The notes under the pieces: model-generated | Told to the model about the DNA's origin: nothing | The model's database searches: none | Seen by the model: the letters and a program-made list of their open reading frames with translations, nothing else | NCBI RefSeq assembly: GCF_003334785.1 | Contig: NZ_QOWV01000033.1 | DNA length: 9,889 nt | Reading direction: 5' to 3' (one strand) | DNA from: Escherichia coli | GTDB taxonomy: Bacteria; Pseudomonadota; Gammaproteobacteria; Enterobacterales; Enterobacteriaceae | Part shown: one piece after another, positions 338 through 2,607 of the stretch | Layout: every line of letters begins with the position of its first letter | Numbering within the stretch: position 1 is the stretch's first letter | Position numbers and translations under genes: made by a program

Positions 338-993
338 GTGTGCCCGGAGTTCAGGGCGGGCATGGATGCTTAAATGAACCGCGAGTCTGTCTGGAATATT
401 GAACCGGTAACTCACGATGAGAAACCCAACAATCCCACCGGGTGTGACGGTGGAGAACCTGAGCGGCAGTGACCTGCGGCATGCCCGCAGGGTGATGTAA
501 CCCGCTGACAACGGGGATTGAGGCGAGATCACTAAGCCGAGATGATCCTCAAGGTTAAGTACTGAAAGGCTGAAGAACATGAACCCGTTAATCCGCCTCT
601 GTGGGTTGAAAACGTCACCACGGCCTACGTGATCTGACAGGCCGTGCAGGAGGAACTGGCAGTGATACGTAAGCACTGCCGGTCGAAGGTGTTTTGACAT
701 GTATGCGAAACACCGGGGCAGCAGCGTCTATCACGCTTGCGTTGCTGACTTCTGCCAACTTGCGGCAAGCAAGGATAAAGAGTGCGACGGGCAGCCTCCT
801 CAGTATGCCTGAGTCCAGGCAGGTAAACCGGGGAAGGTCAGCGACGGATGTTAAGGGGGCATGGCTCCGATGACGCGCTGGCTGGCGGAGCTTCCGTAGT
901 AGTCCGCGATGGGGAAAGCCCATTACATGGCGAAGGGAAGCAGTTTGAATGTGTTTGCGACGTGAATTAACTGGCCTAACGAGGTGAAGACCT

Positions 994-2517
994 TTGATAA
1001 TCAGCGAAATGCAACGCAAGCTTGCCACATGGGCAGCCACCGATCCGTCCCTACGGATTCAACGGCTGCTGCGTCTGATAACACAACCAGAATGGCTGGC
1101 TGAAGCGGCGCGGATCACGCTTTCATCAAAGGGGGCGCATACCCCCGGCGTTGATGGCGTGAACAAAACAATGCTACAGGCCAGACTGGCTGTTGAGCTG
1201 CAAATCCTCAGGGATGAATTACTCTCAGGCCACTACCAGCCCTTGCCCGCCAGACGGGTTTACATCCCTAAAAGCAACGGCAAACTGCAACCACTGGGTA
1301 TCCCCGCGTTGCGGGATCGTATTGTTCAGCGGGCCATGCTGATGGCGATGGAGCCGATATGGGAGAGTGATTTTCATACGCTCTCATATGGCTTCCGGCC
1401 TGAGCGCAGTGTCCACCACGCGATCCGCACGGTGAAATTACAGCTCACAGACTGCGGTGAAACCCGGGGACGCTGGGTGATTGAAGGCGACCTGTCCAGT
1501 TACTTCGACACCGTACATCATCGACTGCTGATGAAGGCTGTACGCCGCAGGATCAGTGACGCACGTTTCATGACTCTGCTGTGGAAAACCATCAAGGCGG
1601 GACATATCGATGTCGGTCTCTTTCGGGCGGCCAGTGAAGGTGTGCCACAGGGCGGTGTTATATCGCCGCTATTATCGAACATCATGCTGAATGAGTTCGA
1701 TCAATACCTGCATGAGCGCTACCTGAGCGGGAAAGCCAGAAAAGATCGGTGGTACTGGAATAACAGTATCCAACGGGGCCGAAGTACGGCGGTCAGAGAA
1801 AACTGGCAGTGGAAACCCGCGGTGGCGTACTGCCGCTATGCCGATGATTTTGTCCTCATCGTCAAAGGCACCAAAGCACAGGCGGAAGCCATCAGGGAGG
1901 AGTGTCGGGGTGTGCTCGAAGGCAGTCTGAAACTCAGGCTGAACATGGATAAGACTAAAATCACCCATGTTAATGACGGCTTTATCTTTCTGGGGCACAG
2001 GATCATTCGCAAACGCAGTCGTTATGGCGAGATGCGAGTGGTCTCAACGATCCCGCAGGAGAAAGCCAGAAACTTCGCCGCATCGCTGACAGCACTGTTA
2101 TCAGGCAACTACAGTGAAAGCAAAGTCGATATGGCTGAACAACTCAACCGAAAACTGAAAGGCTGGGCCATGTTCTATCAGTTCGTTGATTTTAAGGCCA
2201 AAGTCTTCAGTTATATCGACCGTGTCGTGTTCTGGAAGCTGGCTCACTGGCTGGCCCGCAAATACCGTACAGGTATCGCTTCCCTGATGAGGTGGTGGTG
2301 TAAATCACCGAAACCGGGTCAGAGCAAAACGTGGGTTTTATTTGGTAAAACCAATCACGGCAAGCTCAGCGGCGAAATACTGTACCGGTTGGTGGGGCAA
2401 GGCAAGAAGCTGTTCCGCTGGCGGCTACCCGAAGGTAATCCCTATCTGAGGACGGAGACCAGAAACACGTATACATCGCGCTTTACAGAAGTGGCAATGG
2501 CGTTCGCCAGCATTTAA
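994..2517 (+). CDS. Group II intron-encoded protein: reverse transcriptase/maturase (RT domains 0-7 plus X/maturase), no HNH endonuclease domain
   Basis: 507 aa; TPGVDGV (RT0), PLGIP/RIVQRAM (RT1-2), FHTLSYGFRPERSVHHA (RT3-4), YCRYADDFVLIV (RT5 YADD active site), maturase-like C-terminal region, no C-terminal H-N-H/Zn-finger motifs. Track start is TTG at 994, preceded by GAGGTGA (981-987) at good spacing; the first in-frame ATG is 1009. Confidence 0.9.
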   Translation: MIISEMQRKLATWAATDPSLRIQRLLRLITQPEWLAEAARITLSSKGAHTPGVDGVNKTMLQARLAVELQILRDELLSGHYQPLPARRVYIPKSNGKLQPLGIPALRDRIVQRAMLMAMEPIWESDFHTLSYGFRPERSVHHAIRTVKLQLTDCGETRGRWVIEGDLSSYFDTVHHRLLMKAVRRRISDARFMTLLWKTIKAGHIDVGLFRAASEGVPQGGVISPLLSNIMLNEFDQYLHERYLSGKARKDRWYWNNSIQRGRSTAVRENWQWKPAVAYCRYADDFVLIVKGTKAQAEAIREECRGVLEGSLKLRLNMDKTKITHVNDGFIFLGHRIIRKRSRYGEMRVVSTIPQEKARNFAASLTALLSGNYSESKVDMAEQLNRKLKGWAMFYQFVDFKAKVFSYIDRVVFWKLAHWLARKYRTGIASLMRWWCKSPKPGQSKTWVLFGKTNHGKLSGEILYRLVGQGKKLFRWRLPEGNPYLRTETRNTYTSRFTEVAMAFASI

Positions 2518-2522
2518 ATGGA

Positions 2523-2556
2523 GAGCCGGATGCGCTGAAAGGTGCACGTCCGGTTC
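2523..2556 (+). ncRNA. Group II intron domain V (catalytic hairpin)
   Basis: 34-nt hairpin GAGCCGGATGCGC-TGAAAGG-TGCACGTCCGGTTC with AGC triad and GNRA-type loop, immediately 3' of the IEP stop (2515-2517) and about 50 nt from the intron 3' end. Confidence 0.8.
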
Positions 2557-2607
2557 GGGGAGGAGAGGCAGGGAAATAGTCCGACTACGCCCTGCCTCTT
2601 ACTCTAC

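Follow-up and report, generated by a model that had tools for sequence, protein, structure and literature searches.

Group II introns splice as lariats formed from a bulged adenosine with the assistance of a maturase, and the resulting ribonucleoprotein (RNP) reverse-splices into DNA by pairing the exon-binding sites (EBS) of the intron with intron-binding sites (IBS) in the target; both activities are established for this class of retroelement. RmInt1 of Sinorhizobium meliloti (class D, IIB3), which resides in an insertion sequence (IS) transposase gene and encodes a reverse transcriptase (RT)/maturase without an endonuclease, homes using EBS1, EBS2 and a contact to the first base of the 3' exon (+1), and serves as the experimental model of fork-dependent priming. 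Ll.LtrB, an intron of Lactococcus lactis (class ML, IIA), shares the logic of RNP formation and retrohoming; its protein, LtrA, also contains DNA-binding and endonuclease domains and primes complementary DNA (cDNA) by cutting the bottom strand. IS-resident introns of Escherichia coli include E.c.I2 and E.c.I9 in Rhs/H-rpt IS, E.c.I3 in IS679, and E.c.I4, whose published targets are IS629, IS911, ISEc16 and ISEc31 (Leclercq & Cordaux, 2012; PMC3522654). Whereas E.c.I2, E.c.I9 and E.c.I3 each target one IS type, E.c.I4 targets a motif common to many IS3-family elements and is far more abundant. Here we describe a group II intron at positions 338-2607 (+) of a 9,889-nt stretch of E. coli DNA (contig NZ_QOWV01000033.1 of assembly GCF_003334785.1; hereafter, the window). 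It is almost certainly E.c.I4, an endonuclease-less intron of open reading frame (ORF) class A, lying in sense orientation in orfB of an IS911 copy on an IncFII plasmid.

A group II intron in the transposase gene of IS911

The window opens inside IS911, with the left inverted repeat, OrfA and the frameshift site falling outside it; in a matching plasmid (L001), the left inverted repeat is found ~426 nt upstream of window position 1. The 5' exon of orfB occupies positions 1-337 (+). At 338 the sequence changes over to GTGTGCCCGG, and the 3' exon follows at 2608-3094 (+), with its stop codon at 3084-3086 and the right inverted repeat ending at 3094. Because an intron-free IS911 copy (L002) reads GTGACCTATA followed directly by TCTGGACG across the site, the intron spans exactly 338-2607, a full-length element of 2270 nt in sense orientation within orfB. 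Its boundaries are unambiguous, since the flanking bases differ at both edges (exon A337 and intron G338; intron C2607 and exon T2608). The 5' edge, fixed in this way by the empty IS911, carries the splice-site consensus GUGUG (338-342, +), and the 3' terminus is AC (2606-2607). Related introns show GTGYG at the 5' position; these were gathered from plasmids and from a genome scan with one genome per species, which returned 255 relatives, of which the best 80, with 65-96% protein identity, were retained.

Joining positions 1-337 to 2608 onward yields a single open frame without a stop until 3084-3086. The joined exons align with annotated "IS3-like element IS911" copies in one unbroken match at 99.5% identity and match the NCBIfam model transpos_IS3 with 283.6 bits (cut-off, 160). 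Codons at the joined junction read ACC TAT ATC TGG, as they do in the empty IS911, and the ligated orfB junction predicted from the sequence is ACCTATATCTGG. The original prediction, made from the letters of the window, had proposed a complete intron with these ends inside orfB of an IS3-family element, IS911 as the host and restoration of exactly these codons, and our comparison with annotated and intron-free copies confirms each of these proposals.

We then compared the intron with published copies. It is 99.65% identical to E.c.I4-2b of E. coli E24377A (NC_009801:4848623-4850893), beginning at the same G, and 99.55% identical to the K-12 ykfC fragment E.c.I4-tr1 in prophage CP4-6. K-12 MG1655 carries window positions 1-2101 at 98.3% identity in CP4-6, interrupted by IS5, with an intron part of 1764 bp; the published catalogue likewise places E.c.I4-tr1 in MG1655 prophage CP4-6 as a 1764-bp fragment and gives the coordinates of E.c.I4-2b in its Table S3 (Leclercq & Cordaux, 2012; PMC3522654). 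Copies that are more than 95% identical carry one name, and E.c.I4 and S.f.I1 are assigned to ORF class A, an endonuclease-less class (Toro & Martínez-Abarca, 2013; PMC3552965). Judged against E.c.I4-2b and E.c.I4-tr1, the intron at 338-2607 falls under the name E.c.I4, and its membership in class A follows from near-identity to an intron that the literature places there. E.c.I4 and the 99%-identical S.f.I1 are the same element as ours in their boundaries, their length of 2270-2271 nt, their IS3-family hosts (IS911 included) and their endonuclease-less protein.

The element is therefore already known: the intron has a name in the literature, and insertion at this kind of site has been published. 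The original prediction had remarked that the phenomenon was not new, and the literature makes this point more strongly than it did, since both the intron and its preference for IS911 have been described (PMC3522654); its suggestion that the intron be assigned a class and a name is answered by E.c.I4, class A. By itself this copy has little consequence and can be annotated as E.c.I4 in IS911; relative to the common E.c.I4 allele, it adds two point differences and one more site. The window is 99.96% identical to plasmid NZ_CP069544.1 of E. coli FDAARGOS_1248, in which the element adjoins the IncFII repA region, and the intron-bearing IS911 sits on an IncFII plasmid.

RmInt1 differs from E.c.I4 in its ORF class and in its host IS, ISRm2011-2, and the DNA of the intron gave only short, weak matches to Sinorhizobium plasmids. 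The published class D features of RmInt1 include a class-D-specific C-terminal motif (PMC3552965).

Structure of the intron RNA

The 3' end of the intron is recognized by Rfam family RF00029 at 2521-2607 (+), with a score of 64.9 bits (gathering score, 40; E = 2.7e-11), the sole Rfam match in the window. In the RF00029 alignment, domain V occupies 2523-2556 (+), a 34-nt element with an AGC triad at 2524-2526, a 2-nt bulge and a GAAA loop of the GNRA type. Folding of 2521-2607 gives a minimum free energy of -48.2 kcal/mol (z = -6.45 versus shuffles) and places domain VI at 2559-2605 (+), as a helix whose sole bulge is the branch-point adenosine, A2601, the seventh nucleotide from the intron 3' end. 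Both domains show covariation: pair 33/54 of domain V (alignment A3) is UA in 29 sequences and GC in 11, and the basal pair of domain VI is AU in 19 and GC in 17. The canonical domain V/VI fold and the bulged adenosine had both been anticipated before this analysis.

For the 5' part of the ribozyme, RNAalifold applied to the first 660 nt in 42 relatives predicts 144 pairs, and compensatory changes are seen at 93 of these. Domain I spans 343-832 (+), closed by the helix 343-346/829-832 and containing many compensatory pairs; domain II (833-886, +) is a consensus helix with compensatory changes; and domain III (890-941, +) is built from helices 890-895/936-941 and 908-913/919-924, again with compensatory changes. 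The folding of domains I-III is thus borne out comparatively, rather than through Rfam models.

The K-12 small RNA EyeA (b4690) maps into domain I, with window positions 727-801 corresponding to NC_000913.3 272580-272654 in the CP4-6 remnant. EyeA is probably a stable fragment of the intron RNA and not an independent gene.

Recognition of the target site

To locate the exon-binding sites, we picked loops by a permutation test across all registers and then made a formal pairing count on 62 sequences. EBS1, CGUAAG (668-673, +), lies in the terminal loop of hairpin 658-680 and pairs with exon positions -1 to -6 (permutation z = 4.8), where IBS1 reads CCTATA (332-337, +). EBS2, ACGUC (612-616, +), lies in the loop of hairpin 604-619 and pairs with exon positions -9 to -13 (z = 4.4), where IBS2 reads GATGT (325-329, +). 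The region in which the original prediction sought the IBS, ending in GTGACCTATA, contains IBS1 and adjoins IBS2 as these are placed by covariation.

Across the alignment, 85.3% of EBS/IBS cells are paired, compared with 80.5 ± 0.7 in shuffles (0/500 reach the observed value), and sliding the partner by 1-3 columns leaves 19-54% paired. Changes on both sides occur in 8/11 EBS/IBS pairs, including all 6 EBS1 pairs, each of which has changed on both sides in some relative. The EBS2-IBS2 helix is 93.5% paired across the 62 relatives. Exon position -10 covaries with its EBS2 partner (AU 35, GC 6, CG 1, UG 1), and in the six sequences with G at -10 the partner is C in 6/6; stem pair 606/617 of the EBS2 hairpin covaries as well (CG 26, UA 13). 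Because this covariation control leans on a structure derived from the same sequences, it offers support for the assigned sites and not proof. Relatives at atypical exons carry matching EBS1 loops (ACGAAGC with GUUUCG in L061, ACGUUCG with CGAAUG in L057, and ACCUGGC with GCCAUG in L079), and all three look, from these predicted pairings, like naturally retargeted introns. The resulting covariation-supported EBS1/EBS2 map for class A is of modest value for the study and engineering of group II introns.

In the present copy, EBS2 pairs 5/5 with GAUGU of IS911, one G-U pair included. Against CCUAUA, EBS1 forms the pairs G669-U, U670-A, A671-U and G673-C, leaving C668 opposite A(-1) and A672 opposite C(-5) unpaired. 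E.c.I4 copies that are 99.9% identical occupy ISEc31 (ACGTATA) and IS1133 (ACTTATG) at the homologous nucleotide. At the IS1133 site (CTTATG), EBS1 pairs 6/6, and EBS2 has a mismatch at -10; the target reads GATATCACTTATG followed by T in IS1133 and GATGTGACCTATA followed by T in IS911. E.c.I4 thus appears to tolerate imperfect pairing, consistent with its broad IS3-family host range, and the IS911 copy offers evidence of an intron accepting 4/6 EBS1 pairing at a natural site. The first base of the 3' exon is T2608 in this copy and T at 51/53 distinct relative sites; A667, which adjoins EBS1, could pair with this +1 base, although this is a guess.

Several other candidate sites were rejected. 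A naive complementarity search proposed UGUGGGU (600-606) as EBS1, a segment that never varies and does not covary with the exon (z = 0.4), and an 8-bp ACGUCACC/GGUGAUGU pairing as EBS2, which was cut to 5 bp, positions 617-619 being part of the covarying hairpin stem. An alternative EBS1 register, AUACGU (665-670) against exon -7 to -2, pairs 5/6 here but is absent from the family-wide top registers. The loop at 626-639, considered as EBS2, is unchanged while exon -8 to -13 varies.

The intron-encoded protein

Domain IV contains an ORF for an ltrA-type RT/maturase of 502 aa (1009-2517, +), annotated as ltrA in RefSeq. Pfam identifies RVT_1 at aa 86-332 (9.2e-33) and GIIM at aa 356-421 (1.3e-10), the latter corresponding to the maturase (X) domain at 2074-2271 (+), and the YADD motif of the RT active site is intact (1837-1848, +). 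Pfam found no HNH or other endonuclease domain in the protein, in which nothing but a short tail follows GIIM, in keeping with the original prediction. The closest relatives in the PDB are LtrA (5g2x, E = 7.7e-52) and the GsI-IIC RT. LtrA is thus the closest solved structure, and, unlike LtrA with its DNA-binding and endonuclease domains, the E.c.I4 protein ends after the maturase domain and tail.

At codon 94 (1288-1290, +), within the RPLGIP motif, this copy reads CAA (Gln) in place of the CGA (Arg) of the common E.c.I4 allele. The resulting substitution, R94Q, is one of only two base differences from that allele, which is represented by copies in two unrelated strains (L089 and L090). The context of Arg94 is IPKSNGKL-R-PLGIP, and the residue aligned with it is also Arg in LtrA (MRPLGIP) and in the GsI-IIC RT (TRQLGIP). 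We take Arg94 to be the fingers residue that contacts the incoming deoxynucleoside triphosphate, equivalent to R72 of human immunodeficiency virus type 1 RT.

TTG 994 is a possible alternative start of the protein (ORF 994/1009-2517). The sequence GAGGTG (981-986), within a predicted hairpin at 972-987, lies 7 nt before TTG 994 and 22 nt before the annotated ATG 1009, and window positions 976-1011, GAGGTGAAGACCTTTGATAATCAG, are conserved in all relatives. This segment may be a domain IVa site for protein binding and translation control, and either codon may be the true start.

A model for splicing and mobility

The orientation of the intron suggests that it would be transcribed within the IS911 transposase message. 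The RT/maturase protein would bind the intron RNA, the 2'-OH of the bulged A2601 would attack the 5' splice site after A337, and a lariat would be freed. Exon rejoining to ACC TAT ATC TGG would, from the anatomy of the sequence, restore the transposase frame. The lariat-protein particle would then find DNA through EBS2 with exon -13 to -9 and EBS1 with exon -6 to -1, at sites where +1 is nearly always T. As the distribution of insertions shows, the recognized sequence encodes D-[I/V]-T-Y, the segment with the first catalytic Asp of DDE transposases; a single intron can therefore enter numerous IS3-family elements and be carried further by these elements and by plasmids. The original prediction had connected the missing endonuclease with priming at replication forks or single-stranded targets, and this is a reasonable inference from other classes of intron. 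By analogy with RmInt1 and endonuclease-deficient Ll.LtrB, cDNA synthesis by the E.c.I4 particle is probably fork-dependent, with priming from the nascent strand at a replication fork.

Several points weigh against this account. A permissive Rfam search of 250-2700 with the D1-D4 families returned only domain V/VI matches; the 5' fold was for that reason derived comparatively, and domains I-III rest on our own alignment. EBS1 pairs with the IS911 exon at just 4/6 positions, including one wobble, which means that IS911 is matched less well than the best target and that its recognition must depend on EBS2, the protein or a tolerance of mismatches. A third contact, EBS3 or delta, was not located, the +1 base being too invariant for covariation. 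We found no published demonstration of fork-dependent priming for class A, and the splicing and mobility of this copy are predictions from its anatomy. Finally, residue 94 is Arg in 83/85 relatives and Gln only in this copy, whose RT may have been made defective by R94Q.

The last point leads to an alternative that we regard as a serious one, while stopping somewhat short of adopting it: the copy may be a dead passenger, its ribozyme perhaps still splicing but its reverse transcription disabled by R94Q, carried along by IS911 and the plasmid. Beyond the near-invariance of Arg94 and its alignment with the RPLGIP Arg of LtrA and the GsI-IIC RT, this is favored by the rarity of the allele, which we saw in its exact form in one record (NZ_CP069544.1, as a single copy), other copies being 99.9% identical and carrying Arg. 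Yet the ORF is otherwise intact over its 502 aa, with YADD present, maturase function is perhaps unaffected, and Gln94 could retain partial activity, the effect of R94Q being a prediction from sequence. Loss of RT activity would refine the identification as E.c.I4, not exclude it; the copy may have lost autonomous mobility and simply be carried by IS911 and its plasmid.

Distribution of E.c.I4 and its relatives

The intron, at >=80% coverage of the query, is present in 1874/5426 complete E. coli genomes, in up to 20 places per genome, and also on plasmids of Klebsiella, Salmonella, Citrobacter, Enterobacter, Yersinia and others. Nearly all examined relatives with both ends mapped share a transposase site, GAY NTY ACN TAY N, then the intron, then T, and D-x-T-[Y/F/W] is encoded directly upstream of the intron at 52/62 distinct sites. 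Among five sampled hosts, four are IS3-family elements above the NCBI cut-off and one (L028) is an IS6-family element with the intron at D-E-T-Y.

These distributions bear on a second alternative, in which the intron serves as a brake on IS911: a split orfB would lower transposase output, and the intron would be retained for taming the IS rather than as an active parasite. The insertion does separate the first catalytic Asp motif of the transposase from the remainder of the DDE domain, and repression of mobile elements by resident introns has been raised as a possibility (Waldern et al., 2020; PMC7306698). However, 99.9%-identical introns at the homologous nucleotide of different IS species, bursts of many copies within single genomes, and EBS loops that covary with target sequences form the pattern of a homing element, and we consider the brake improbable. 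That the element is some other RT element than E.c.I4 or class A, such as a retron-type RT or a group IIC intron, might be suggested by one plasmid annotation ("Putative uncharacterized protein YkfC"), by PDB relatives that include chains deposited as "retron-type reverse transcriptase" and by the K-12 homologue ykfC, once labelled a retron-type RT, but it is refuted by the canonical domains V and VI, GUGUG, the bulged adenosine and the maturase domain, by the identity to the published E.c.I4 copy, and by the location inside a gene, not after a terminator, with an EBS2, which IIC introns lack.

Class A was described as three near-identical introns in 2013 (PMC3552965) and as scarce in 2020, with two in 1,435 genomes (PMC7306698). 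The 255 relatives recovered here suggest that the E.c.I4 lineage extends beyond the published descriptions that we found, and they form a far larger set of class A relatives, spread over many genera and directed at one shared stretch of transposase codons, those of the catalytic motif. This set and the evidence for 4/6 pairing are likewise of modest value to work on group II introns. We tentatively raise the possibility, doubtful as it stands, that class A is a large and old lineage, reaching across Gamma- and Alphaproteobacteria and other phyla, specialized on D-x-T-Y codons and unreported. On that reading its hosts would be mostly IS3-family with one IS6-family element, and changes in EBS1 and EBS2 would track variants of the target site.

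Individual relatives show further variation. The IS6-family host (L028) carries its intron at 564-2840, after D-E-T-Y in the transposase gene; the intron-encoded protein is 71% identical to ours, and the EBS2 loop, UCAUC, can pair at every position with the exon of this relative, GAUGA. A Marinobacter relative (L022, 1827-4099) appears to be inserted one nucleotide further downstream, directly after ACCTACTG, with C rather than T at +1, which could reflect off-register insertion or a local indel. Four draft contigs (L011, L023, L041 and L050) are exactly one intron long (2271-2288 nt), and such assembly breaks at intron borders point to multicopy bursts in the genomes concerned. Seven matches (H115-H121), in E. 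coli plasmids of ~92-95 kb, extend over no more than the 5'-most 76 nt of the intron, at 94.7% identity, and represent a conserved 5' intron stub on similar plasmids.

Plasmid surroundings

The 3-bp target duplication of IS911 is mismatched, reading AAC on the left (~7235-7237 of L001) and ATT on the right (window 3095-3097), which suggests recombination between IS911 copies or an adjacent rearrangement. Beyond IS911, the rest of the window (3470-9480) encodes an AraC-family regulator (3470-4279), a helix-turn-helix protein (4327-5151, -), an ANR-family regulator (5236-5424) and a fimbrial operon on the minus strand, made up of genes for the major subunit (CS22/SEF14 type; 5623-6129), the usher (6231-8687) and the chaperone (8671-9480). 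The annotation of the matching plasmid identifies this arrangement as that of an aggregative-adherence (pAA-like) virulence plasmid, and the locus provides a worked example of one mobile element nested within another on a virulence-type plasmid.

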